A stretch of 64,000 bases of DNA from Fidelibacterota bacterium. Lineage in GTDB: Bacteria; Fidelibacterota; UBA8477; JABMPR01. The DNA lies in contig JAJRSW010000053.1 in NCBI GenBank assembly GCA_024278595.1, forward strand, positions 4,488-68,487, written 5' to 3'. A program made the position numbers and the translations under genes. Of the stretch, positions 9,150 through 25,287 are shown piece after piece. The notes beneath the pieces were generated by a model, which was not told where the DNA came from, ran no database searches, and saw nothing but the letters and a program-made list of their open reading frames with translations. The stretch's first letter is position 1; the number at the start of each line of letters is the position of its first letter.

Positions 9150-10565
9150 TTAGTCTTTTACACAACGTACAGAGTGGCCACTTTTCTTGAAAGCGAACCC
9201 GCGAGAAATACGTGACTCACTATAAATCAGTGTATGATTCCAACCATAGCCACTACTGCTCTCAGTCGCTGTCCAAAAGTACCCACTGATTGTAATGTTA
9301 CCGTAATCACCAGTAGTACCATCATAGCGATAACCTCCAGGTAACGCAGTAAAGCCACTACTATTATTTCCATTACCTCCATTATACCACCCACTGGTTG
9401 ATTTTAATTTATCACCTTCATCTGTACCGCGCCAACTGCTACCCTGATCTGCCTGCTCTTGGCTCATCCCCAGAGCCATCTCAAGCTCTTTCCACTCGTC
9501 ATCTGTGGGTACATGCCAACCTTCTGGGGCAATATTCCGACTGTCATTTAATGCATACCAGTTATACAAAGCACCATAGGTGTCTACCTCATTTTCTGCA
9601 TTATTACTATAAATACAGTAGGCTTCGGTTGTCAGGTTAGCCCAAGCAGCATTATCCGTTACATGTGTGACTTCAGTACCATCTCGATAACGGGTTACTT
9701 TTAGGTTCTCTGCCATCCATGTTTGAGTTCCTATAATAACAGTGCTGTAAACATTACCATCAATATCTGTTACTATTACTGGTGATTGAAAATCGCCAGT
9801 AACAGTTTGTGTGCCTGTCGGTCCGATCGTGATTTCAACTGCTGCTGTACCTAGTGGAACTTCATTTGGTCCAACCCATACCAAGTTAATAGTATAGTTA
9901 TTATCGGCTCCAGCTATGACGGTAACTGTTGTGTCTCCAGTATATAGCAAGTATTCCGCTCCCCACATATCTCCATAGGCATCTAACTTAATATTATGCT
10001 CTACGCCCGTACTCAGATAGTCATAGCTCAGACTTAACGTGGAACCTACTCCACTCTGTGCTTCGAAAGAAGAGTCAGCTACCAGGGCCGCATCCACCAA
10101 TAATTCACAGCGACTCACTGAATCAGCTATCCCAACAAAATTTGCCACCAACATAGAATACTTCGATGTTAATGAAAGGCTTACATCCACAGTGTTTGTT
10201 GGTACAACTGTGAAGGTGGTGGAGTCTGAATGAATGACAATATCATTTACATCCCGAGATTCTGCTTTTACGCTCCAGGAGCCTTCTACTAAGTCTGTAT
10301 AGCTGTTACTTACAATAGTCTGAGAATTGCCACTAACGGCTACTGTATCCCTGACGGTGGCTACACCATTGTTTAGTTCAATGTAGAGGTTCTCCAGGTC
10401 AATAGTGGCGGCCTTACTCAAACTACCAACATTGCTTAAATGGATAGATAGATTTACTTCACCTAAAGTCGTTATGGCTAGCGGTTCAGTAGAGTTATTA
10501 CAGCCTTGAACCAGCATTAAAATGGCACCCATAGCAAGTATTGAAGCTCTTGTGTTTTGCATCAC
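9150..10565 (-). CDS. surface lipoprotein with C-terminal Fibrobacter succinogenes major paralogous domain (Fib_succ_major)
   Basis: Lipoprotein signal (AILMLVQGCNN). The C-terminal ~190 aa carry the hallmark motifs of the domain: TQTWMAENLKV, ALYNWYA, EGWHVPTDDEW, GFTALPGG, FWTATE, and the terminal SGHSVRCVKD. Confidence 0.65.
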   Translation of the reverse strand: MMQNTRASILAMGAILMLVQGCNNSTEPLAITTLGEVNLSIHLSNVGSLSKAATIDLENLYIELNNGVATVRDTVAVSGNSQTIVSNSYTDLVEGSWSVKAESRDVNDIVIHSDSTTFTVVPTNTVDVSLSLTSKYSMLVANFVGIADSVSRCELLVDAALVADSSFEAQSGVGSTLSLSYDYLSTGVEHNIKLDAYGDMWGAEYLLYTGDTTVTVIAGADNNYTINLVWVGPNEVPLGTAAVEITIGPTGTQTVTGDFQSPVIVTDIDGNVYSTVIIGTQTWMAENLKVTRYRDGTEVTHVTDNAAWANLTTEAYCIYSNNAENEVDTYGALYNWYALNDSRNIAPEGWHVPTDDEWKELEMALGMSQEQADQGSSWRGTDEGDKLKSTSGWYNGGNGNNSSGFTALPGGYRYDGTTGDYGNITISGYFWTATESSSGYGWNHTLIYSESRISRGFAFKKSGHSVRCVKD

Positions 10566-11254: not shown

Positions 11255-11297
11255 AGAATAGCCCCCAGGAACCGAAGTTCCCAAGGGCTTGGGGGGG
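11255..11297 (-). terminator. terminator hairpin downstream of tRNA-Val
   Basis: Minus-strand GGAAC-UUCG-GUUCC hairpin (UUCG tetraloop, extended by flanking G/C pairs) followed by a U-rich tract. Confidence 0.4.
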
Positions 11298-11372
11298 TGG
11301 GCGCTGAGGGAGTCGAACCCCCGACCCCCTGCTTGTAAGGCAGGTGTTCTAAACCAACTGAACTAAGCGCCC
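11298..11372 (-). tRNA. tRNA-Val (anticodon TAC)
   Basis: Manual cloverleaf on the minus strand: acceptor GGGCGCT/AGCGCCC, D-arm GTTC..GAAC, anticodon stem CCTGC/GCAGG with loop CTTACAA (anticodon TAC), T-arm GGGGG-TTCGACT-CCCTC, discriminator A. CCA is not encoded. Confidence 0.85.
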
Positions 11373-11965: not shown

Positions 11966-13156
11966 TTAATCAACAGCGTCCTGCTTTAGAATTGATGCGG
12001 TTAAAGGTCGGTAGTATTGCCAAAAGAATGATCTGGTATCCAAAACATTCCTGCTATTATACAAAAAAGATTGGAACCAGTGGATCCACTTGAAATAAGC
12101 ACTGACTGGTGTTATCTCATTCCGGGAAAAATCTCCTGCAAAATAGTAAAAGCGATAGTCCGGACCCTCATGAGCCAAAACAGCCGGAAAAACAGGTGAA
12201 AGATCCTGAGCCGCCAGTACGGAATCACCGGCTTCGGTGACCGGCAAATGGAAAGTTGAAACCACAGTATTCTCACGAGTAGGTGAAAAAACCATATCAA
12301 ACCAGGATATATAATTGACTTCAGCAGGAACATGAAACTTTTCCTGGTAAAAAGGACGAGTCTGAATGACCGGAACCTTGCGTTCTAACAAAGATCCACT
12401 CTCCAAAATGATGATATCATCATTAGAACTCACCAACACCAGCCCTGATTGGATATAGGGCCAGGATTTTCCGGTCTGCTTCCGATGAAGATCAAATATC
12501 CAAGCTGGTACTCCGGCTCCCTTGGTGGAATCCAACGAATCAAAATAACGACCGCTCCATCCTGTCCATAGCAGACCGAATTCCTTCAGGAAACGCCTGC
12601 GAGCATTTGGAGGGGTTGATTCACCTAAAATATTAAATTCCGCAATAATCAGTTTTTCTCTGACTTTCATAGCTTCAAGCAAATCCAGATCCCGTTCATA
12701 AAGCCCACCATATAATAAGCGATTGGGCGTCTGCGGTTGAGCAAAGAAATCGTTGTAATAAACACCGTACGTATCAGCAAAATAAACAGCATCTATAGTT
12801 TCAGCTAAACTGTCCACAGCACTTTTTGAATAATTACTGATATCTTTTATTAAATAATTATCAGCCGCCAGGGGATAAAAACCGTAGTAATCACAGCCCC
12901 TGGAATATTTATTCCCATCTGATTTGGTGATCTTTTCATTGTTCAAGACCCAGAATAAGGATAGTTGGTTTTGTGAATCACTATCAGGCACTGACTTATT
13001 CAGCACAAAGATATCCATTGGGAAATCCGGTGTCGCAAACCAACTCAGCACCATTATTACTGGCGTCACTATTAAGCTAAAGACCAGGTAACGAAGCAGT
13101 CTTACCTCAAACGGCTGTTTGATATATTTAATGAGTTTTCTGGTTTTCACCCGCAT
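11966..13156 (-). CDS. membrane-anchored periplasmic protein of unknown function (last gene of the EPS operon)
   Basis: Single N-terminal TM/signal anchor (LVFSLIVTPVIMVLSWF) and a large Trp/Tyr-rich soluble domain with no motif I recognise. It follows the TPR-porin gene after a 9-bp gap. Confidence 0.55.
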   Translation of the reverse strand: MRVKTRKLIKYIKQPFEVRLLRYLVFSLIVTPVIMVLSWFATPDFPMDIFVLNKSVPDSDSQNQLSLFWVLNNEKITKSDGNKYSRGCDYYGFYPLAADNYLIKDISNYSKSAVDSLAETIDAVYFADTYGVYYNDFFAQPQTPNRLLYGGLYERDLDLLEAMKVREKLIIAEFNILGESTPPNARRRFLKEFGLLWTGWSGRYFDSLDSTKGAGVPAWIFDLHRKQTGKSWPYIQSGLVLVSSNDDIIILESGSLLERKVPVIQTRPFYQEKFHVPAEVNYISWFDMVFSPTRENTVVSTFHLPVTEAGDSVLAAQDLSPVFPAVLAHEGPDYRFYYFAGDFSRNEITPVSAYFKWIHWFQSFLYNSRNVLDTRSFFWQYYRPLTASILKQDAVD

Positions 13157-13165
13157 ATTCGATCC

Positions 13166-14683
13166 TTAGAATCGGCGGGAATAGGAAATGTAGAACCCCG
13201 TATCACCTCGGTATGCCGCTTTACGCACTTCCACATTGGCAAAGCTGAGAACACTTTTGATCAGGTTCAAGTCATCCAGTTTCCACTGATAGGTCATGTT
13301 CAAATGGCGAGAGCTAAGATAACTGACTTCCACGGCTCCCAGACTAATATCAGGCGACTCTCCCTGCCCGAAACTAAGCTCCAGGTATGTCTCTGCATCC
13401 CTGATATATCGTCGGCACTGGAAATTCCAGGCTCTGGAAAATGATACCTCCTGGGGTGTCAGGAAGCTACGGATGCTAAACCAGTAGCTCCGCCAATACT
13501 TACTTGCGGATCCAGTAAAAATATTCAGGTCAAGAGCCTCTAAATGCACAGACCGATAACCTGCAGATACTTCAAATGCCTGGGGCAGAACTTGAAACAC
13601 CTCGGCTCCAGTTCTGTAGCTTGGGAAAAGTTGGGTCCCGGAATAGCCCAAAGCAAGATAGGCATAGGTACCTTTTCTGATTGTCGGGTATGATTCCAAC
13701 TCAAACTGCATCCCTGACTGCCCGAAACGGCGGGCAAAATTGAACCGGGCAATGACAGGTCCAAAGCTCAATCTTTGTTCAAGCTCGATTCTTAATTGAT
13801 GCCAGGGCTCAAGCGTGGTCCGGCCCACCAACACCTGCCATGGTGTCCTGGTACCAGCCAACCTGTTATAGCTGTATCCTATGCTTACCTTTCTAGCACG
13901 CCCCTGTCGAGATAGGTCGGCCAGTATTGCAGTCGCTTTAGCATGACCAGGATCCTGCTTTAGCACTTGTTGAAACGCTAATTGAGACGCTTTAAACTGC
14001 TCCAGCTTAAGTAAACATACTCCTCGTTTATAAATAAATTCCGTATTTAGCGGATTTAGTTGAAGACCTTGTTCCAGTAGCTCAAGCGCTGCTACATAGT
14101 TTCCACTCCAGATATAGACATCAGCCAATGCGCTGCGGGCATCTTCGAAATAGATCTGTTCATCCAATACGCGATGGAGTTGCACAGCAGCACTATCATA
14201 TTGCCCTTCCCAGGCATATAAACGACCCAGGAAGATACGGGTTTCATAATGATCAGTTGTCAGGTCAAGACCCCGCTGGCAAATGCGGATGGCCAGTTGA
14301 TTATTCTTTTCAACAAAGGCCACTTCTCGAGCATATTGGTAAAGAGAATCTGAATTGTTATTCAGTCGATAATCTCTAAAAATACTACTCTCAGCCAAGC
14401 TAACCTTCTGGGCCGTACTGTCCCCTTCGCCCATTTCTGCAAAACAGGGTATTACAATAAATATGACAGCTAATAACCGAATGAATTTTATAGTGCCGTG
14501 CTTCGAGAACACTTCAACGAGCCCAGTGTGGCACCTCAGCCCGTGGAACATCCCGCCACCGATGGGGACCTGCTTGAGGATGGCCGCCCTGCGGTAGTCA
14601 CTGAGCACGGCTGAAGTGCTCTTGAAGGGTTTGAAAGCAAAATTATACACCAATGACCTCATATCAATCATCAACTTCCTCAT
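13166..14683 (-). CDS. TPR-repeat plus C-terminal beta-barrel outer-membrane protein (PgaA/BcsC/PelB-like exopolysaccharide export porin). True start probably an internal Met near 14554.
   Basis: Internal signal peptide (KFIRLLAVIFIVIPCFA), multiple TPR-like repeats (YYQYAREVAF.., LYAWEGQYDSA.., AKATAILADL..), then an amphipathic beta-strand-rich C-terminal half ending in an aromatic residue. ATGA overlap with the GT2 stop. Confidence 0.55.
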   Translation of the reverse strand: MRKLMIDMRSLVYNFAFKPFKSTSAVLSDYRRAAILKQVPIGGGMFHGLRCHTGLVEVFSKHGTIKFIRLLAVIFIVIPCFAEMGEGDSTAQKVSLAESSIFRDYRLNNNSDSLYQYAREVAFVEKNNQLAIRICQRGLDLTTDHYETRIFLGRLYAWEGQYDSAAVQLHRVLDEQIYFEDARSALADVYIWSGNYVAALELLEQGLQLNPLNTEFIYKRGVCLLKLEQFKASQLAFQQVLKQDPGHAKATAILADLSRQGRARKVSIGYSYNRLAGTRTPWQVLVGRTTLEPWHQLRIELEQRLSFGPVIARFNFARRFGQSGMQFELESYPTIRKGTYAYLALGYSGTQLFPSYRTGAEVFQVLPQAFEVSAGYRSVHLEALDLNIFTGSASKYWRSYWFSIRSFLTPQEVSFSRAWNFQCRRYIRDAETYLELSFGQGESPDISLGAVEVSYLSSRHLNMTYQWKLDDLNLIKSVLSFANVEVRKAAYRGDTGFYISYSRRF

Positions 14684-16113
14684 TTTCCACCCTTCGGTGA
14701 AGTAACAAATCCTTTACGTTCCATTTTACCCCAGCCTTCTACTTTGCGCAGTGCAGAAATAAATCCGTGGATACGCCAATATATTGTTAATTGTCTGTAA
14801 CCAAAATTTTCAATGATCGCCAGCATGAAAAGTTTCAGTAGATCAGTAAACCGCGGGTAGCGTCTAAAGGTCATTTCCTCCAGGGCCACCGAGAATATGG
14901 ACAGAGCAACACCGAACATAAATGCGGCCATAAAAAAGGCTATTATGTAAGAAGTTGAAACCGTACCCCAGATGACAGAGATAAGAAATACAAAATATCC
15001 GGGAAGCTCAATCGCTGGCCCAAGCATCTCCAATAAATAAAAATAAGGGAATGCTACCAGGCCAATTCGACCATAGCGGGGATTCATAAACATCACTCGA
15101 TGACGTGTGAGTACTTCAAACAGTCCTCGTTGCCATCGGTCCCGTTGGCGGCCTAATATTTTTATCGATTCCGGACATTCTGTCCAGGCTACAGGATCAG
15201 GAACAAAGGAAATATTATATGGAATTTTATTCTCCAGGAAATGACGGTGAAGCTTCACTACCAATTCCATATCCTCTCCCACTGTATCAGTGGCATAGCC
15301 GCCTACATCAACAACTGCGGAACGCTTGAATACACCAAAGGCTCCTGAGATAATCAGCGTTGATTTCAAGGCACTCCAGCCCATCCGACCTGAGAGGAAG
15401 GCTCTGAGATATTCAAGTACCTGATATTTAGCCAGCAAATTCCGCGGCAAACGAATCTCCTCCACAGAACCCGACCTAATGGTACAATCATTCACAATAC
15501 GAATAATGCCACCCGCTGCCAGGGTGCTGGCATCCTCAAGAAAAGGTCTTACAATTCTGATCAAGGCATCCCGCTCAAGCAGGGTATCGGCATCCATGGC
15601 ACAAAATAGAGGTGTACTGCAAAAGTTTACTCCACCATTGAGAGCATCTGCTTTTCCACCATTTTCCTTATCCAATAACCACAGATTGGGTTGATATTTA
15701 GACCTGTATACCCCGCGCACTTTGGCTGACTTCAGTTTTGATAAGGCTGACCGTTGGGCCGGTTCCATATCAAAAGCCTCAATGAGAACTTCAAGTGTGC
15801 TATCTTTTGAGCCATCATTGATAATGATAACTTCATATTCCGGATAATTAAGCGCCAGGAGCGCTTTCGTCGATTCAATACAGGTCGCTTCTTCATTGTA
15901 GGCTGGAGCCAGCAAGGTCACAGGAGGCACACCTGCCTTGGCAATCAGTGCATTGAGATCAACCGCCTTCATGCGGCGGGCATAGGTTCTAAGTGCAAAA
16001 AAAGCAAATATGGTCGTGGTTAGATAAAAGAAGTTAAGTGCCAGAAAATAGAATAACACAAGATAGTTAAAACTTTCTAGGATGATCTGGATTATGCGAA
16101 TTAGAACTGTCAT
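14680..16113 (-). CDS. processive family-2 glycosyltransferase (PgaC/IcaA/NodC/BcsA-like polysaccharide synthase)
   Basis: N-terminal TM helices, a GT-A core with DGS (NDGSKDST), DAD (AMDADT) and Q/RxxRW (QRDRWQRG) motifs, and C-terminal TM helices. No PilZ domain. Confidence 0.8.
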   Translation of the reverse strand: MTVLIRIIQIILESFNYLVLFYFLALNFFYLTTTIFAFFALRTYARRMKAVDLNALIAKAGVPPVTLLAPAYNEEATCIESTKALLALNYPEYEVIIINDGSKDSTLEVLIEAFDMEPAQRSALSKLKSAKVRGVYRSKYQPNLWLLDKENGGKADALNGGVNFCSTPLFCAMDADTLLERDALIRIVRPFLEDASTLAAGGIIRIVNDCTIRSGSVEEIRLPRNLLAKYQVLEYLRAFLSGRMGWSALKSTLIISGAFGVFKRSAVVDVGGYATDTVGEDMELVVKLHRHFLENKIPYNISFVPDPVAWTECPESIKILGRQRDRWQRGLFEVLTRHRVMFMNPRYGRIGLVAFPYFYLLEMLGPAIELPGYFVFLISVIWGTVSTSYIIAFFMAAFMFGVALSIFSVALEEMTFRRYPRFTDLLKLFMLAIIENFGYRQLTIYWRIHGFISALRKVEGWGKMERKGFVTSPKGGK

Positions 16114-16115
16114 TA

Positions 16116-17210
16116 TTATTTCTCAGCCAAGACCTGACGAATAATAGCAGCTCGGGAATGCTCAGATTGGAGAGCCGCTTCAAGCAGATCCCTTCTTTGA
16201 AGCTGGTTCAAGGTTCTCGCCGCATGGAGAGCGACCCACGTTGATTTATCATCCAGAGCTTGGGTGATGATAGCACCATCATCCTGGTTCCCAATTTGCC
16301 CCAGAGCATGAAGTGCGTGGATCCGGACAATAAAATGTGGGGACTTTAAATGGTCTATTATTATTGCCCGGTGGCGCGGAATCCCAACTTGCCCCAGTAA
16401 GCGGAGCAAAGCGGCCTGGAGTTCAGAATCGATTCCATTTCCCAGCAATTCAGCAGCCACATTTCCTGATTCAAGATCACCAATGCTACGGAGAGCCTCG
16501 GTACAAGCAATGCGCACCCGATTGCTTTCTTCAGAGCTGGATAATGTCTTTCGCAAATCCGGCGCGGCTCCACTGCCCATTTCTGTTAACATGGATGATA
16601 AAAAATTCATACTCCACTGATCAAACATACTGAGCACCGGCAAAATCACCTTACAGTGCTGGGGATATTCAGGTCTGGCGAGTGCCCGGGCTGCACTCAT
16701 GGTTACAATGGGTGATGGATCCTTTAGGGCTGATTTAATAGCCTCGATGTATTGTGGGAATCCAAAGGTCCCCAGGATATTTACATTCCGGGCTCTTAAT
16801 TCCGGATAACCACCTTTTAACCCCTTGGCGAATCGTGCCAGATATGGCTGGGCCAAAGCTTTGACCAGCTTGAGTTCGTGGCCCTGTAGGCGTTCAGCAA
16901 ACCGATGTAAATATCTTACGAAAAAAAGTTGGTTGTGTCGACTAACTTTGATGGCCGGAGGTTTGTCATCTTCATCCGACATAACTATGGTGATCAAGAT
17001 TTTCTCCCAGGTAGATTCCAACTTTTTTAATCGGGATGCTCGCAAATTATTTTTTATGCGCAAGATCATAACACCGGTTGATAGAATAATGGTCAGGGCC
17101 AGGATGATAAAAATGGCCATAATGATAATTTGCATGGCCAGTGCTTCACTGGGTATTTCCAGATAGTAGAGTTGTGCTTTCTCCCATAACAGATTTATCT
17201 GATTCAGCAT
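16116..17210 (-). CDS. HEAT-repeat (PBS-lyase type) inner-membrane protein
   Basis: N-terminal TM helix (IIIMAIFIILALTIILSTGVMIL) followed by at least five HEAT/PBS-lyase-like repeats (..SPIVTMSAARALARP.., NRVRIACTEALRSIGD, PHFIVRIHALHALGQIG, KSTWVALHAARTLNQL). Start placed at Met MLNQ to avoid overlapping the REC gene. 2-bp gap to the GT2 gene. Confidence 0.6.
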   Translation of the reverse strand: MLNQINLLWEKAQLYYLEIPSEALAMQIIIMAIFIILALTIILSTGVMILRIKNNLRASRLKKLESTWEKILITIVMSDEDDKPPAIKVSRHNQLFFVRYLHRFAERLQGHELKLVKALAQPYLARFAKGLKGGYPELRARNVNILGTFGFPQYIEAIKSALKDPSPIVTMSAARALARPEYPQHCKVILPVLSMFDQWSMNFLSSMLTEMGSGAAPDLRKTLSSSEESNRVRIACTEALRSIGDLESGNVAAELLGNGIDSELQAALLRLLGQVGIPRHRAIIIDHLKSPHFIVRIHALHALGQIGNQDDGAIITQALDDKSTWVALHAARTLNQLQRRDLLEAALQSEHSRAAIIRQVLAEK

Positions 17211-17235
17211 CAGTCGAAATTGCTGGAGAATTGCA

Positions 17236-17604
17236 TCAAGACTCAAGACAAGTCTCCAGAGTCCTGAAAAAATGAGCCGGGTCAAACGGTTTATGCAGAA
17301 CTGCCAGTGCCCCAGCTTTCTTAAACTGCTGTTCAAGATCAGGGTCTTTGCGTGCCGTAAGAATCACTACCTGGGTGGCTTGTAGTAAAGATTCATCCTG
17401 CAACTGCTGTAACAAATCCAGCCCTTTTGCATCAGGCAGGAGATAGTCAAGCAGCAATACGTTGATATCTCCCCGTGTGAGACTTGCCCACCCTGCTGAT
17501 GCAGTTTCTGCTTCTAGCACGGTGTAGCGTCCAGACCTCTCTAGAATCATTTTAACGATGAATCTAATATCCTCATCATCATCAATGATTAACAGCTTTT
17601 TCAT
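17236..17604 (-). CDS. single-domain response regulator (CheY-like receiver)
   Basis: MKKLLIIDDDEDIRFIVKMILE...LLLDYLLPDAKG..ILTARKD. REC domain only, 122 aa. 4-nt overlap with the upstream GGDEF gene. Confidence 0.8.
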   Translation of the reverse strand: MKKLLIIDDDEDIRFIVKMILERSGRYTVLEAETASAGWASLTRGDINVLLLDYLLPDAKGLDLLQQLQDESLLQATQVVILTARKDPDLEQQFKKAGALAVLHKPFDPAHFFRTLETCLES

Positions 17605-19133
17605 TTTAAAAGACGATGTACGCGAGCCAGGAGTTCAGTCGGGCTGAAAGGTTTTAGCATATAATCATTTGCACCCAGCTGCAGCCCCCTGGCAATATCA
17701 TTTTCCCGGCCCATTGAAGTCAGCATGATAATTGGTGTATTCTGGTTGAGAGACTGCTTTCTTATTCGCTGCAATAATTCAAACCCATCCATTCCAGGCA
17801 TTTTGACATCCGTGATCACTAAATCGTATGGATTATTGCTGGCAGATTCAAAGGCCTCATCTCCATGGAGATAGTGACTGGTCTTAAACCCGGCTCGTTC
17901 TAGACGATGAATGATAAATTCTGCTGTAAGATCATCATCTTCTGCAAGCAGAATTGATCTCTGACGGGGGATTACTTTTTCATGTTCAGTCAATACCTGG
18001 TTGCGTCCGGATTCCTTGGCTTTATACATAAGCTGATCAGCTACTGAGAAAGCTGCTTTAAGGGGCAGGTTGTGGTCCACATCAACTACTCCGGCGGAGA
18101 AGGTAATTCTCAACTTTTCTTTGCTGCTGTGCAATATGTAAGCATTATTGTTGAGGTGGTCCAGAACTTTATCAATGGTCTTTTTGGCACTGGCAGCATC
18201 AGAATCTGGAAACAGAATGGTGAATTCCTCTCCACCCCAACGAGCAACAATATCAGAATCCCGTAATAGCTGTTTCATTACCTCAGTGATATGTTTCAAA
18301 ACCTCGTCACCTGCCAGGTGGCCATAGCGATCATTGATGGATTTAAAATGGTCGAGGTCAAGCAATCCAAGACTTAATTTTGAATCGCCTTGCTGAGCTA
18401 AATTTTGCGAGTTCTGGTAATGCTCATTAAACCCTGCCCGATTCATTAGACCGGTAAGACTATCTAGCTGAGCCTCCCGGTGAACTTTTCTGGCGCTATT
18501 AATTGTTGCTGCAACATGAGTTGATAAGAGCCCGGGATCCACGGGTTTTTCAAAATAATTGTCAGCACCTAAAGCATAACACTCTGCTTTAACTTGTGGA
18601 CTGCTTTTGGCTGAAAGAACGACAACAGGAATAGAATTGGTTGTGTAGCTCTCTTTTAACTCCACCAGGAAATTACGCCCGTCCGTATCAGGCAGGATCA
18701 AATCAAGGATAATGAGCGAGACATCCTCCTGTTTAAGTAATTCTCGTGCTGCTGTAGCCGTTTCAGCCAAGAGCACATGATACCCTTGTTTTTCAAGAAT
18801 GGTGCTTAAAATAAATCGGATCTCTTCACTATCGTCAACTACCATAATTACTTCGCAGCTCCCCCGGCCTGCTTCAGAGAGCGAACGTAGATAGTTGATC
18901 AGATCTGCCAGCCTGGATTTGAGTTGATCATGGGAAGCCTCTTCCACTGCTTCAGCCAGCTCCGAAATTTTCGGAAACCCATAGGTTCTCCCTGATCCCC
19001 GCAAGGTGTGAGCAATCCGTTGAGCTGATATGCCAGCTTCCGCATTTTCCCGATTCAGGGCTGTTTGAGCGGCGCTAAGGGCTTCTATGCGTGAGCCAAG
19101 TTTTCGAATATATTCATTCTGATAATCTTCCAT
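17601..19133 (-). CDS. diguanylate cyclase with HPt-REC-GGDEF-REC architecture
   Basis: N-terminal HPt-like motif (RIAHTLRGSGRTYGF, similar to the CheA P1 / HPt HxxKG motif), a REC domain (VIMVVDDSEEIRF..), a GGDEF domain (LTGLMNRAGF..RWGGEEFTILFPD) and a second C-terminal REC (ILLAEDDDLTAEF..DVKMPGMDG). Confidence 0.85.
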   Translation of the reverse strand: MEDYQNEYIRKLGSRIEALSAAQTALNRENAEAGISAQRIAHTLRGSGRTYGFPKISELAEAVEEASHDQLKSRLADLINYLRSLSEAGRGSCEVIMVVDDSEEIRFILSTILEKQGYHVLLAETATAARELLKQEDVSLIILDLILPDTDGRNFLVELKESYTTNSIPVVVLSAKSSPQVKAECYALGADNYFEKPVDPGLLSTHVAATINSARKVHREAQLDSLTGLMNRAGFNEHYQNSQNLAQQGDSKLSLGLLDLDHFKSINDRYGHLAGDEVLKHITEVMKQLLRDSDIVARWGGEEFTILFPDSDAASAKKTIDKVLDHLNNNAYILHSSKEKLRITFSAGVVDVDHNLPLKAAFSVADQLMYKAKESGRNQVLTEHEKVIPRQRSILLAEDDDLTAEFIIHRLERAGFKTSHYLHGDEAFESASNNPYDLVITDVKMPGMDGFELLQRIRKQSLNQNTPIIMLTSMGRENDIARGLQLGANDYMLKPFSPTELLARVHRLLK

Positions 19134-19139
19134 TGAACA

Positions 19140-22100
19140 TCACCCCTGAAAGATCTCATTTATCTGATGCCTGATCTCTATCTCCAGGTTATCAGATTTG
19201 AGTATAATGGGTATCGCTTCGGCTTTAAAAAACAACTCTTCAGTCGGTGACAGTTCTTTTCCGGTTACAACAAGAACTGGAATAGCATCGTAACGTCTAT
19301 TTCGTCTTAATATACCTAGAAACTCCTGTCCATTCATTCCCGGCATCATTAAATCTAATAGGATAAGATCAGGCATGGAAGTTTGAATGATCTCCAAAGC
19401 TTCAGAACCACTTTCGGCAGATCGAATTTCTACTCCGAGACCTCCCACATAACTGGATAGAGTCAACCGCATGTCGGGATCATCTTCCACTATTAGAATA
19501 CGTCTTCCTTCAATTGCAAGATTACGCTTGATAGCCCACAATAATTGCTGACGATGGATCGGCTTGGGAATAAAATCCACAACACCTGAAAGCCGTCCAC
19601 GATATTCACGGGCGATGATACTGACAACAACAACTGGAATGCGCTTATACTCTTTTTTTGCTTTCAGAGCCCTTAAGAACTTTTCGCCATTAATCAACGG
19701 CATCTGCAGATCGAGGGTGATCAGATCGGGACGATGCCTTCGTATGGCCTTGAAGGCTTCTTTTGCACTATCTGCAATATCAAGTTTACAACCAGTCTCG
19801 GATAAATAGTGCTTAAGTAAGGTTTGGGAATCATCATCATCATCGACAATCAAAATTCGACGACCTCGCAGGTCATCAAAAGGCAGGGTTGTCCTGCGAG
19901 TTCTACTGCGTGTTGCTCCTGCATTCCGGACTTTATTGTTCTCGACTTGTGTACTTATATCCTGTTCAGAAACTTTAATGATAAACGTGGAGCCGCGTCC
20001 GACTTCACTTTCAACTTCCAGGATACAGCCCATGATTTGACACATCCGACGACTAATGGATAGCCCTAGGCCCGTTCCCCCATACTTCCGTTGGGTCCCA
20101 GATTCTACTTGCGTAAATTCGTCAAATATCTTCTCAAGACGATCCTGCGGGATGCCGATACCGGTGTCGGCTACCCTGATCTCAGAAACATGATTGTTTT
20201 CCTGGTTGGCAATAACAGTAATAGTTATTGCCCCTTCATCAGTAAATTTAATCGCATTGCTGATCAAATTTAGCAGGATCTGTCTTATTTTTCCCGGATC
20301 GGTGACAAGGGGCAGCAGATTGTCTGGAATTTTAGCGATCAACTCAACTGGTTTGCCCTGCAATTGGCTCTCAACCATCTGAATGAGATCAAGTATTTGT
20401 TCACCAATATCCAGCTCAACAAGTTCCAGATCCATACGGCCAGATTCGATCTTGGACAAATCCAGGATATCGTTGATCAATCGTAGTAAATGGGTGCCAT
20501 TATCTTGAATTCGCTCTAGATATAGAATGTCTTGTTTATTCAAACGCTGGGCAGAGTTTTTTAACAGAATATTTGAGAAGCCAATAACGGAGTTAAGTGG
20601 CGTGCGAAGTTCATGACTCATATTTGCCAGAAAATCACTTTTGGTCTGATTGGATTCCTCAGCCACAGATTTTGCTAATTTCAACGCTTCCTCGGCTTGC
20701 TTGCGACTGGTAATGTCAAGGATAATGCCTAAAAACCCTGTGATCGAGCCGCTGGTATCCTGGAGTGCCGTAACTGCTGAATTCACCGTTAGATGACTGC
20801 CGTCTTTGCGTACGTAAGTCCATTCATGTTCAACCTGGCCACCTAATCGGGCTAAGACAACAAAGGTTTCAAATCCGTCAATCTCCCGCTCTAACTGAGT
20901 TGACAATTCACGAGCCCATTTTTCTACTTCTGCCTGTAGATGAAAAATAGAGGTAGATTTTCCCACGACTTCTTCTGATGTGTACCCCAGCATATTTTCA
21001 GCACCAGGGTTAAAAATAGTAATACCCCCTGCTAGATCTGTGGCAATGATGGCTACCTGAGTCGCCGAATTAAATACATTTTTTAAGCGCAGATGAGCAT
21101 TGGCCAGGTTTTCTTCGGCATGTTTCCGAGCGGTGATATCCATGACCGTTCCGGAAAAGTAATGATGCGTACCCGCACTCACTTCACTTACACCCAGTTC
21201 AATATATATTTCTTCTCCGGTCTTGGTGAGAGCTGAGACCTCCCTGCTGGTGCCAATGAACTCTGTTAACTCGGTGTGTAAATAGTGTTGTAGCGAGTTG
21301 TCATCCTCAGCGTGGGTCGAGTCATACATGAGATGACGGACATTTTTTCCAATTACCTCATCAGCATTATAACCAAAGATGTTCTCTGCGGCTGCGTTAA
21401 AGGATTGGATCATCCCCTCGTTATCAATGAGAATAACACCCACCATTGATGAGTTGATAATTGATTTATAACGTTCTTCGCTTTGTGATAATTCCTGACT
21501 CGCTTGCTCACGTTCCAAAACCCGACTCACCCACTGGCCCATCAACCGAACAAGATCCTCATCTCCTCCAGTGAAACGTTCTGCCCGAGGACTCGTCTTG
21601 GAAAAACTCAGTGTACCATAAATTTCACCTTGTATATGGATGGGAACGCCAATATAAGACTCAAGCTGGAAAGTCTCCCAACATGGGTGGCTAGCGTAGG
21701 GTGATTGGGACATCTCATTTATAGTCACCACTGCATTTTCCTCCAATGTCATGCTGCAGTAGGTGTCAGCTAATTTAAATACCTGGTTTTGAGCCAAAGT
21801 TGATGCTTCGGGGTAAAAGTACAACACTTTGAATTCATCATCTTTAATGTGACTGATTATGCCCAGGTCCATTTCCAGGGTCGCGGCGCCGGCTGCCAGT
21901 GTTTCTTCTAATTGTTCATTAACCGTTAGGTGGCTGGTGGCCGCTAGTTCGTATAAAATTCGAATTCGCTTTTGCTGAAGCTTAAGGTCATTGTTCAGGT
22001 TTGTAAGATTCTCTTCATAATGGATACGCTCAGAAATATCTCGACTCATCGCCAAAATCCGACCTTCGCCATCATTTCCGCCAGGATTAAAAAAGCGGGT

Positions 22101-22703
22101 GGCAGATTCTAACCAGATGTAGTGTCCATCTTTATGTCTGAATTTGTACGTGGATCTTACTGTTTCTTGGTGTTTGAGAATTTTTCGGTGTTCGAGTTGC
22201 ACTATCCCAAGTTGATCCGGGTCAATAAAATCATATATGGACCGACCCTCCAGCTCTTCCGGCTCATAGCCTACGATTTGTTTGGATCTCTGGGTCGCAA
22301 ACAGGAATCGCCCCTCCAGATCATGTTCTGCCAGCATATCGGTTGCTTCCTCAGTCAGAATTCTATAACGATGTTCACTGGTTTTCAGCCTGAGCAAATA
22401 GCGTTCTCGTGACCCGGCTATGGCCGGTGCCCACAAAAATAATCCAATGAGCAACAGCAAGGGGCCGCCAATTTGCCCCATGAGTTGTTTCAGTATATTT
22501 TGGAAAAAATTATTCGAAAGAAACGGATAAACGCCATTAGCAAGATCTAGGACACTACCCATCCACATGAGCCCCAAAGCAAATACAACGAAATACCAGC
22601 CTCTTTGGACCCGGAATTGATTTCTCTCACCCAAAATGGTAACAAAAATGAAAAGAACTCCAAAAATTAGAGCAAGCAGTATTTCAGCAATCAGGCTTAA
22701 CAA
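19140..22703 (-). CDS. multi-PAS/GAF hybrid sensor histidine kinase with two C-terminal receiver domains
   Basis: N-terminal TM helices, several PAS and GAF segments, a HisKA H-box (ANMSHELRTPLNSVIGFSNIL), HATPase_c (NLISNAIKFT, GTGLGLSISRRM) and two REC domains (RILIVDDDDDSQ.., RILIVEDDPDMR..). 1187 aa. Confidence 0.9.
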   Translation of the reverse strand: MLSLIAEILLALIFGVLFIFVTILGERNQFRVQRGWYFVVFALGLMWMGSVLDLANGVYPFLSNNFFQNILKQLMGQIGGPLLLLIGLFLWAPAIAGSRERYLLRLKTSEHRYRILTEEATDMLAEHDLEGRFLFATQRSKQIVGYEPEELEGRSIYDFIDPDQLGIVQLEHRKILKHQETVRSTYKFRHKDGHYIWLESATRFFNPGGNDGEGRILAMSRDISERIHYEENLTNLNNDLKLQQKRIRILYELAATSHLTVNEQLEETLAAGAATLEMDLGIISHIKDDEFKVLYFYPEASTLAQNQVFKLADTYCSMTLEENAVVTINEMSQSPYASHPCWETFQLESYIGVPIHIQGEIYGTLSFSKTSPRAERFTGGDEDLVRLMGQWVSRVLEREQASQELSQSEERYKSIINSSMVGVILIDNEGMIQSFNAAAENIFGYNADEVIGKNVRHLMYDSTHAEDDNSLQHYLHTELTEFIGTSREVSALTKTGEEIYIELGVSEVSAGTHHYFSGTVMDITARKHAEENLANAHLRLKNVFNSATQVAIIATDLAGGITIFNPGAENMLGYTSEEVVGKSTSIFHLQAEVEKWARELSTQLEREIDGFETFVVLARLGGQVEHEWTYVRKDGSHLTVNSAVTALQDTSGSITGFLGIILDITSRKQAEEALKLAKSVAEESNQTKSDFLANMSHELRTPLNSVIGFSNILLKNSAQRLNKQDILYLERIQDNGTHLLRLINDILDLSKIESGRMDLELVELDIGEQILDLIQMVESQLQGKPVELIAKIPDNLLPLVTDPGKIRQILLNLISNAIKFTDEGAITITVIANQENNHVSEIRVADTGIGIPQDRLEKIFDEFTQVESGTQRKYGGTGLGLSISRRMCQIMGCILEVESEVGRGSTFIIKVSEQDISTQVENNKVRNAGATRSRTRRTTLPFDDLRGRRILIVDDDDDSQTLLKHYLSETGCKLDIADSAKEAFKAIRRHRPDLITLDLQMPLINGEKFLRALKAKKEYKRIPVVVVSIIAREYRGRLSGVVDFIPKPIHRQQLLWAIKRNLAIEGRRILIVEDDPDMRLTLSSYVGGLGVEIRSAESGSEALEIIQTSMPDLILLDLMMPGMNGQEFLGILRRNRRYDAIPVLVVTGKELSPTEELFFKAEAIPIILKSDNLEIEIRHQINEIFQG

Positions 22704-24060: not shown

Positions 24061-25287
24061 CTAATCATCATCTTCTTCTTCCACCACCCTCAGTATCTTT
24101 AAACCTCCCAAACCTCCCGCAACATAAAGGTAATTTCCTTTGACTTTGACGTGATTAACTGACTGAAGATCATCAAACCGGAAGCTGCCAATCATCTGGA
24201 TGTCATCAACTTCACAATTCCTGGAATTAAATTTATCTCTTGACCAGGCTACATAAACGCCTGCCTCCCCGTTGGACATGTATAAAGTTTTGCCACTGGT
24301 TGTGGCTGCATTGGCAACGGTTACACTTTCGTCAAGATCAGGTATCACCGGAGGAGGAATTTCTTCGATGACTTCCCCATTTTCCAGGCAAATAATCTGG
24401 ACACCTCCATTACCCAAAGCCACAACTGCTTTACGTCGATAAACTTCGATGGTCGATTTAGAAAAAGGGATATTAGCGCCTGAAAGTGAAAATTCCTCAA
24501 GCAATTCACCACTTTCATAATTAAATGTCAGAAGCCTGGCTGGTGTTCCGGCGATTATTGCGATCTCTTCGTCATCAGTACCAACACCTCTGGCGTCTTC
24601 CACCGGATATGAGAATTCAATTTCATGGTCTGATAACCTGATTACCGTTACCTGTCCTCCTTCAGCCCCGGATGTCACAAACAGATGGTGCGAGGATACC
24701 GCAACGTCCGTAGCAGCCCAACTGGGGATGTCAAAGGTCTCTGTCTCGTCAGTTAAAACCCCCGACCTTATGCGCACCCTCTCAACCACAGCTGGCGAAT
24801 CGAATTCAGCTCGATCTGTGGCCATGGTGAGATAGAGATAGTTGTTCTTGTAGGCCAGTCCGTTTACATCTGAATCTGTAAAATACATGGATGAGATCAG
24901 TTCTGGATCTTCTTCATCCCTTACATTAAAAACATCTACCGCCCCCAGGAAAGGTTCACCGATCATATTGTATGCCACATAGGCCTTATTATCTTTCACA
25001 TAAACATCGGTAGCCTGGAGGACCTCTCCACTGACTGTCGGTGATTCAACTTCAGCAATCAACACCAGATTAATCGGATTTTGACTTGCTTTGATCAAAC
25101 CAGTGTCCTGGATACTGGTATCCAATTCAACAACTTCATTCATATAGGTAATTCGGCTTGACAATATTTGGAGATCGTTCTCAAGTGCAATACGAGTATT
25201 TTCAGGAGGCTCGGTGCATTGATTTAGGAGGCCGGCTAGCAGAAAACTGCCCAAGACTGCAATTGTGTTTGATCTTTTTTTGTTCAT
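24061..25287 (-). CDS. LVIVD-repeat beta-propeller lipoprotein
   Basis: Lipoprotein signal (LLAGLLNQCTEP). Repeated NYLY(V/L) ...GGL.IL/V units (NNYLYLTMATD.., GNYLYVAGGLGGLKILRV) typical of LVIVD surface-protein repeats. Confidence 0.45.
   Translation of the reverse strand: MNKKRSNTIAVLGSFLLAGLLNQCTEPPENTRIALENDLQILSSRITYMNEVVELDTSIQDTGLIKASQNPINLVLIAEVESPTVSGEVLQATDVYVKDNKAYVAYNMIGEPFLGAVDVFNVRDEEDPELISSMYFTDSDVNGLAYKNNYLYLTMATDRAEFDSPAVVERVRIRSGVLTDETETFDIPSWAATDVAVSSHHLFVTSGAEGGQVTVIRLSDHEIEFSYPVEDARGVGTDDEEIAIIAGTPARLLTFNYESGELLEEFSLSGANIPFSKSTIEVYRRKAVVALGNGGVQIICLENGEVIEEIPPPVIPDLDESVTVANAATTSGKTLYMSNGEAGVYVAWSRDKFNSRNCEVDDIQMIGSFRFDDLQSVNHVKVKGNYLYVAGGLGGLKILRVVEEEDDD

Follow-up and report, generated by a model that had tools for sequence, protein, structure and literature searches.

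The gene at positions 11966 to 13156 of a 64,000-nucleotide stretch of DNA from a Fidelibacterota bacterium (GenBank assembly GCA_024278595.1, contig JAJRSW010000053.1; the whole stretch is called the window in what follows) encodes a membrane-anchored protein of 396 residues that founds an unnamed and unannotated protein family. This protein, here called the target, closes an operon that fits the synthase-dependent exopolysaccharide (EPS) class, and we propose, with a probability of about 0.5, that it is a non-catalytic module which binds the polymer at the outer face of the inner membrane and hands it on. Synthase-dependent EPS systems, such as those for cellulose, poly-N-acetylglucosamine (PNAG), Pel and alginate, are central to biofilm biology. 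To our knowledge, almost nothing is known of such systems in the Fibrobacteres-Chlorobi-Bacteroidetes (FCB) group, which includes the abundant marine Marinimicrobia as well as the Bacteroidota. This article describes the protein, its family, its partners and its natural fusions, and weighs the roles that it might play beside the synthase.

The target protein and its family

The target gene begins with an ATG codon, just 5′ of which lies an AAGGA sequence. Its features, all on the minus strand, are the following:

11966..13156 (-): target gene, operon-terminal member of the unnamed family, 396 residues (open reading frame and homologues)
13031..13099 (-): signal-anchor transmembrane (TM) helix, residues 20-42, with the N-terminus cytoplasmic (hydropathy and charge bias; AlphaFold2 helix 15-41)
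12062..13024 (-): extracytoplasmic alpha/beta/alpha domain, residues ~45-365, folded like class-I glutamine amidotransferases
11972..12037 (-): conserved C-terminal helix, residues 374-395, with the motif FFWxYYRP (AlphaFold2 helix 374-395)

The sole hydrophobic segment of the protein is made of residues 20-42, with a Kyte-Doolittle value of 2.16. Residues 1-21 contain seven lysines or arginines against a single acidic residue, while the 21 residues past the helix contain one basic and four acidic residues. According to the positive-inside rule, this charge bias marks the helix as a signal anchor with the N-terminus inside and the C-terminus outside. Within the TM region, P32 and W39 are conserved in the family alignments, as are F377, W379, Y382 and P384 in the C-terminal helix. 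In the soluble part, tryptophan, tyrosine and phenylalanine together make up 16.5% of the residues, and there are one cysteine and five histidines. An earlier note, written from the sequence alone, had described an N-terminal signal anchor followed by a large aromatic-rich soluble domain, and both are borne out by these data. It had also recognized neither a NodB deacetylase signature nor a glycosidase motif, in keeping with which the protein has no match in Pfam or NCBIfam. Nor did searches of Pfam, NCBIfam and PDB sequences connect it to any unrelated known family, a result that would have spoken against the note's proposal. Even at E<=10, no consistent Pfam match is found among 43 aligned members, and a search of PDB chains with the family sequence profile gave noise only.

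The reading frame is a real gene and not a chance one, since 131 homologues were found at E<=1e-3 in a search of 5.8 billion proteins, and a profile search gave 776 cluster representatives. All of the 131 homologues are annotated as “hypothetical” and are without a Pfam domain. The closest, at 99% identity, comes from a metagenome-assembled genome (MAG) of Candidatus Marinimicrobia, and among the rest are proteins of FCB-group bacteria, Bacteroidales, Algoriphagus, Gramella and Daejeonella. The profile was made from 43 members, its 776 representatives are clustered at 50% identity, and 403 of them are recovered at E<=1e-30. When one genome per species was scanned from motif seeds with the narrower alignment A2, at least 357 carrier genomes were found, mostly from the FCB group; as the scan depended on two motifs, this count is a lower bound. 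The 80 carrier loci that were retrieved belong mostly to Bacteroidota, together with Ignavibacteria, Calditrichaceae and Neomarinimicrobiota, and the target domain is also present in monoderm Firmicutes. One contig labeled as a Brevundimonas vancanneytii MAG (L069) has its locus laid out as in Sediminibacterium (Chitinophagaceae), and has probably been mis-binned.

Fold and conserved residues

The AlphaFold model of the target, a confident one with a predicted local distance difference test score (pLDDT) of 92, has a class-I glutamine-amidotransferase-like (GATase1) fold. This is an alpha/beta/alpha architecture with a central mixed sheet, as in the catalytic class-I amidotransferases, and about 200 of the roughly 330 residues of the soluble part align. 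The model has the same structural neighbors as CBM87, the module with which the deacetylase Agd3 binds polysaccharide. The Cys-His-Glu triad is absent, and no cysteine or histidine is invariant in either 43 or 274 sequences.

Across 274 domain instances, seven residues (E173, W200, Y338, W285, W219, D128, and K54) each reach a conservation of 94-99%. E173 is kept in 268 of 269 cases, and G238 and P217 are also among the best-conserved positions. H64 is conserved in just 85%, and is a glutamine in the window protein. In the AlphaFold2 model K54, D128 and E173 each come immediately after a predicted beta strand, and they would lie at the edge of the sheet where a GATase1-like fold puts its functional site. 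Judging from the strand topology, the conserved residues probably cluster in a single cleft. By strand order the nucleophile position is occupied by E173, which is followed by a nine-residue loop and not by the helix of a strand-nucleophile-helix elbow. The Pfam families ThuA-like, GH42 middle domain, GATase1_like, GldG, and DUF4350 are matched by none of the 43 members, even at E<=10.

The operon

In the window, the operon runs from a TM-anchored HEAT-repeat protein to a processive family-2 glycosyltransferase (GT2), then to an outer-membrane barrel that carries tetratricopeptide repeats (TPR), and finally to the target:

16116..17336 (-): TM-anchored HEAT-repeat protein, the constant partner of the synthase (HEAT_2, 2e-25)
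14680..16113 (-): membrane-embedded processive GT2, the synthase, with a QRDRW motif (GT2 Pfam families)
13166..14683 (-): TPR and YaiO-type outer-membrane beta-barrel, the presumed export porin (PF19413 YaiO, 9e-47; TPR families; TIGR04390)
11260..11372 (-): tRNA-Val and hairpin terminator, the end of the transcription unit

Its junctions are tight, with a 2-nt gap between the HEAT and GT2 genes, a 4-nt overlap between those of GT2 and the TPR-YaiO protein, and a 9-nt gap ahead of the target. Compared with PgaC_IcaA the GT2 reaches 146 bits, which is under the 422-bit cut-off, and its similarity to BcsA is weak. Synthase-dependent EPS secretion systems combine a processive membrane GT2, marked by the motif Q(Q/R)xRW, with a TPR/beta-barrel exporter, and here both are found in one operon of abutting or overlapping genes. 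The operon fits this class, and polymer production is predicted from its genes.

On the 3′ side of the target there is a spacer of 594 nt, then a tRNA-Val with the anticodon TAC (11296-11372, minus strand) and, directly after it, a terminator made of a 13-bp G+C-rich hairpin (11260-11289). No terminator-like site was found between the target gene and the tRNA-Val. This arrangement makes the target the last protein-coding gene of the operon, the position at the end of a GT2/TPR-porin operon that the earlier note had assigned to it.

Genomic linkage

The association is not confined to the window. A set of 61 non-redundant loci anchored on the target, each flanked by 5 kb or more on either side, was searched with the window's own proteins. 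A gene for a YaiO-type barrel is the immediate upstream neighbor, on the target's strand, in 48/61 and is found anywhere in the locus in 53/61, a cognate GT2 (at least 300 bits) occurs in 47/61, and 45/61 have both. Had the gene been missing from beside homologous GT2/TPR genes in other genomes, the earlier note would have given up its proposal; these counts uphold it. The linkage spans Bacteroidota, Ignavibacteria, Calditrichota and Marinimicrobia, and the gene orders vary: HEAT-GT2-YaiO-target, HEAT-GT2-target, target-HEAT-GT2-YaiO, or a YaiO-target pair that is divergent from or convergent with REC-HEAT-GT2. Since the linkage survives such rearrangement, it points to function rather than to hitch-hiking.

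Natural fusions

In several cases the partners have become a single polypeptide. HEAT, GT2 and target domains follow one another in a 1377-residue RefSeq protein of Heliophilum fasciatum, and a second GT2::target fusion is represented by a partial protein. The order target-TM-HEAT is found in P0132 and in L083, where the GT2 gene comes directly next. Three clusters carry a C-terminal SPOR peptidoglycan-binding domain after the target domain, and a tandem duplicate of the target domain also occurs. In about nine clusters of 1060-1110 residues, the target domain is followed by a module of roughly 710 residues; the Brassicibacter mesophilus protein of this kind is encoded directly upstream of HEAT-GT2. 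This module has a predicted fold of glycoside hydrolase clan GH-A with both glutamates of the catalytic positions invariant, so that in this architecture any hydrolase activity is predicted to come from the partner domain.

The TM2+HEAT, SPOR and GH-A partners are all attached after the C-terminal helix of the target. Those that are extracytoplasmic agree with the topology given by the positive-inside rule, and all of the fusions are consistent with an extracytoplasmic domain beside the synthase. Heliophilum and Brassicibacter being Firmicutes, the role of the domain cannot depend on an outer-membrane porin. The target would act at the synthase, and not solely in export across the periplasm, because monoderm Firmicutes have its domain fused to the synthase or to the GH-A-like module. 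A partnership with the outer-membrane porin only was rejected on the same ground.

Proposed role and alternatives

What, then, would such a protein do beside a synthase? In the proposed mechanism, the target would be an accessory subunit of an uncharacterized EPS system whose core would be made of the TM-HEAT protein and the processive GT2. Its one N-terminal helix would hold it in the inner membrane next to the synthase, with the GATase1-like domain, its amidotransferase triad lost, facing the periplasm. There the conserved aromatic and acidic cleft, at the C-terminal edge of the central sheet, would bind the nascent polymer leaving the synthase much as CBM87 binds its ligand. In diderms such as this Marinimicrobia bacterium, the chain would next be taken over from the target by the TPR arm of the YaiO-type porin, whose gene lies just upstream. 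What the data show is the reading frame, the topology signals, the fold class, the missing triad, the gene linkage and the fusions; that the protein binds polymer, contacts both the synthase and the porin and has no catalysis of its own is what we infer. The earlier note had put the protein forward as a candidate new accessory factor for polymer processing or export; this suggestion is supported, and the fold points to binding or hand-off rather than to catalysis.

Several observations weigh against this reading. Neither YaiO nor GT2 lies within 10 kb of the target in 6/61 target-anchored loci (L003, L015, L028, L040, L044, and L065). Metagenomes scanned with a GT2-subfamily alignment gave 80 synthase-anchored loci, mostly from high-GC organisms, and of the 27 flanked by 3 kb or more on each side, 16 have a HEAT match and only one has the target. 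Similarly, L104 has a GT2 that is 71% identical and a close YaiO, and no target behind them. The target cannot be needed for basic polymerization or export; its rarity at synthase-anchored loci and its absence from L104 make it an optional accessory and not a core subunit. An obligatory, BcsB-like core subunit was accordingly rejected, most synthase loci of the same subfamily being without the target. Lastly, E173 (268/269) and D128 are invariant to a near-absolute degree, as would be expected of a catalytic pair no less than of a binding site.

This last point is the starting place for a different role, that of a new enzyme which modifies or cleaves the polymer on a GATase1 scaffold. Its E173, in the nucleophile position, and D128, on the neighboring strand, would form a carboxylate pair, for example in a glycoside hydrolase, in a transglycosylase, or as base and acid for some other modification of the nascent chain. 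Besides the degree of invariance of the two residues, the lack of any other hydrolase or deacetylase in this operon speaks for such an enzyme. We see it as possible and on balance unlikely, for there is no conserved Cys, Ser or His nucleophile and no metal-binding set, a loop takes the place of the nucleophile elbow after E173, and in some lineages a hydrolase is supplied separately. In addition, the carbohydrate-related neighbors of the fold (CBM87, CBM114, the GH42/GH164 middle domain, and OST48) are non-catalytic by description, and we know of no CAZy catalytic family on a GATase1-like fold. Possible and on balance unlikely, too, is the specific version in which a new catalytic class of GATase1-fold enzymes would act on nascent EPS with a glutamate (E173) replacing the cysteine nucleophile and working with D128 and K54; if true, it would be a new CAZy family, and the first case of glycan chemistry on this fold.

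The conserved surface might also serve other proteins rather than a glycan. As a scaffold comparable to OST48/Wbp1 or to the GH42 trimerization domain, the target would assemble or stabilize the synthase complex and dock it to the TPR-porin, to peptidoglycan or to a hydrolase, all without touching the polymer. This is improbable, as the conserved aromatics of exposed type (six Trp) and the acidic residues resemble a glycan-binding surface; moreover the partners vary by lineage and the conserved residues do not, for which a common ligand, the polymer, is the better fit. Finally, the target could be a mere neighbor that is unrelated to the EPS system, as the six loci without YaiO or GT2 might lead one to think. 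Its linkage in several gene orders from Bacteroidota to Ignavibacteria, Calditrichota and Marinimicrobia, and its covalent fusions to synthase and HEAT protein in independent lineages, leave hardly any room for this. Polymer binding and hand-off thus stays our preferred role for the target.

Comparison with known systems

The target is most like CBM87 and CBM114 in its fold and most like BcsB or the predicted CcsB in its role, and is homologous to none of them. In CBM87 of Agd3 the amidotransferase triad is missing, and GalNAc/GalN oligomers are bound via D242, W292, and W344 (PMC7229062). CBM114, which is folded alike, precedes the deacetylase domain of Bacillus cereus PelA_DA (PMC13254593). 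The target shares with CBM87 both the triad-less GATase1-like alpha/beta/alpha fold and the structural neighbors, but there is no detectable sequence similarity, and by CAZy criteria it therefore does not belong to CBM87.

Like the target, BcsB and the predicted CcsB of Clostridia (PMC7710045) are extracytoplasmic partners of a processive GT2, anchored by a single helix and sometimes fused to the synthase. A flavodoxin-like alpha/beta domain and a proposed role in guiding the nascent chain are further features that they share with the target. However, the BcsB family has two carbohydrate-binding domains (CBDs), two flavodoxin-like domains and a C-terminal anchor, whereas the target has one alpha/beta domain, no jelly-roll CBDs, an N-terminal anchor and no match to PF03170. 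BcsB is furthermore obligatory, while the target is dispensable in most members of its synthase subfamily.

YbcH, from the E. coli exopolysaccharide system nfrB-nfrA-ybcH, resembles the target in being encoded by the terminal gene after a GT2 and a TPR/beta-barrel protein, and is annotated as an auxiliary component. Homology between the two was rejected (hhalign probability of 0.2%), YbcH being a DUF4434 protein and the target Pfam-negative. The deacetylases of carbohydrate esterase family 4 (CE4/NodB), such as PgaB, IcaB and PelA, are built on a distorted (beta/alpha)7 barrel with Asp/His metal motifs, and the target has neither: it is an alpha/beta/alpha sandwich without an invariant histidine, and no CE4/NodB Pfam match occurs among the 43 members. 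As for the lumenal domain of OST48/Wbp1, the GIFT domain of IFT52/GldG and the middle domains of GH42/GH164, they have no sequence relationship to the target, and differ from it in partners and cellular settings. In the literature, no paper was found that describes this type of operon.

The HEAT-GT2 core, its accessories and neighboring genes

The TM-HEAT and GT2 pair is conserved in organisms with GC contents from 0.36 to 0.75 (metagenome loci L088-L167), and is present in Firmicutes as well. HEAT-GT2 seems to form the core of a synthase system that is widespread and so far undescribed, and its accessories look lineage-specific: a YaiO barrel, the target family, a GH-A module, or an LVIVD-like lipoprotein. 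About 56/83 target-anchored loci contain a further gene, for a membrane protein of ~670 residues of the sulfatase/LtaS/BcsG type (PF00884; e.g., L004 9390-11393). It is convergent to the target, mostly within ~20 bp of its stop codon, and often comes right after the GT2 gene; it is absent from the window. This gene suggests that the Bacteroidota polymer bears a decoration of the phosphoglycerol or phosphoethanolamine type.

The ~710-residue GH-A-like family, a large one in Firmicutes, has no Pfam model and adjoins HEAT-GT2 genes, and the wrong annotation “family 2 glycosyl transferase” is widespread among its members. It may correspond to YdaN of B. subtilis. Examples are:

L168 8001-10139 (Alkaliphilus oremlandii)
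L083 5794-8382
L073 7299-9857
P0202 residues ~380-1110

Upstream of the operon in the window lie regulatory genes, all on the minus strand:

17236-17604 (-): REC protein
17601-19133 (-): Hpt-REC-GGDEF-REC protein
19140-22703 (-): hybrid PAS/GAF histidine kinase

The order histidine kinase, Hpt-REC-GGDEF-REC, REC is shared with the related loci L001 and L006, and most Bacteroidota loci retain the REC gene alone ahead of HEAT-GT2. This hints at control of the synthase by a phosphorelay, via the HEAT protein. The HEAT reading frame as listed, from a TTG start, overlaps the REC gene by ~100 nt, and its relatives are 349-378 residues long; on these grounds translation probably begins at an ATG inside the listed frame, for instance at the Met of residue 43 or 68 ahead of the TM helix.

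Two predicted lipoproteins are encoded on either side of the operon:

9150-10565 (-): 471-residue predicted lipoprotein with a C-terminal Fibrobacter succinogenes major paralogous domain (PF09603, E 2e-50)
24061-25287 (-): 408-residue lipoprotein with a weak match to LVIVD repeats

The former is encoded downstream of the tRNA, and nothing evident ties it to the operon. The latter is 36% identical (E 1e-73) to the product of the gene right after a GT2/YaiO-like pair in L146, a high-GC soil locus, and its relatives hold the same position in L142, L154, and L158. This 424-residue L146 protein was tested as a distant homologue of the target and rejected as such; it is a relative of the lipoprotein instead. 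The 24061-25287 product may belong to this EPS system as an additional part, in which case the locus would extend to ~25.3 kb.

Significance

For the target family, a recurrent extracytoplasmic component of the widespread and unstudied HEAT-GT2 synthase system, this work supplies the fold and topology, the genes of its partners and residues that lend themselves to testing. Cultured carriers are available in Pedobacter, Zunongwangia, Christiangramia and Algoriphagus, and the family merits a database model. The family also shows that the GATase1-like carbohydrate-binding fold, known as an appendage of the deacetylases Agd3 and PelA_DA, can be found by itself as a free-standing, membrane-anchored subunit.
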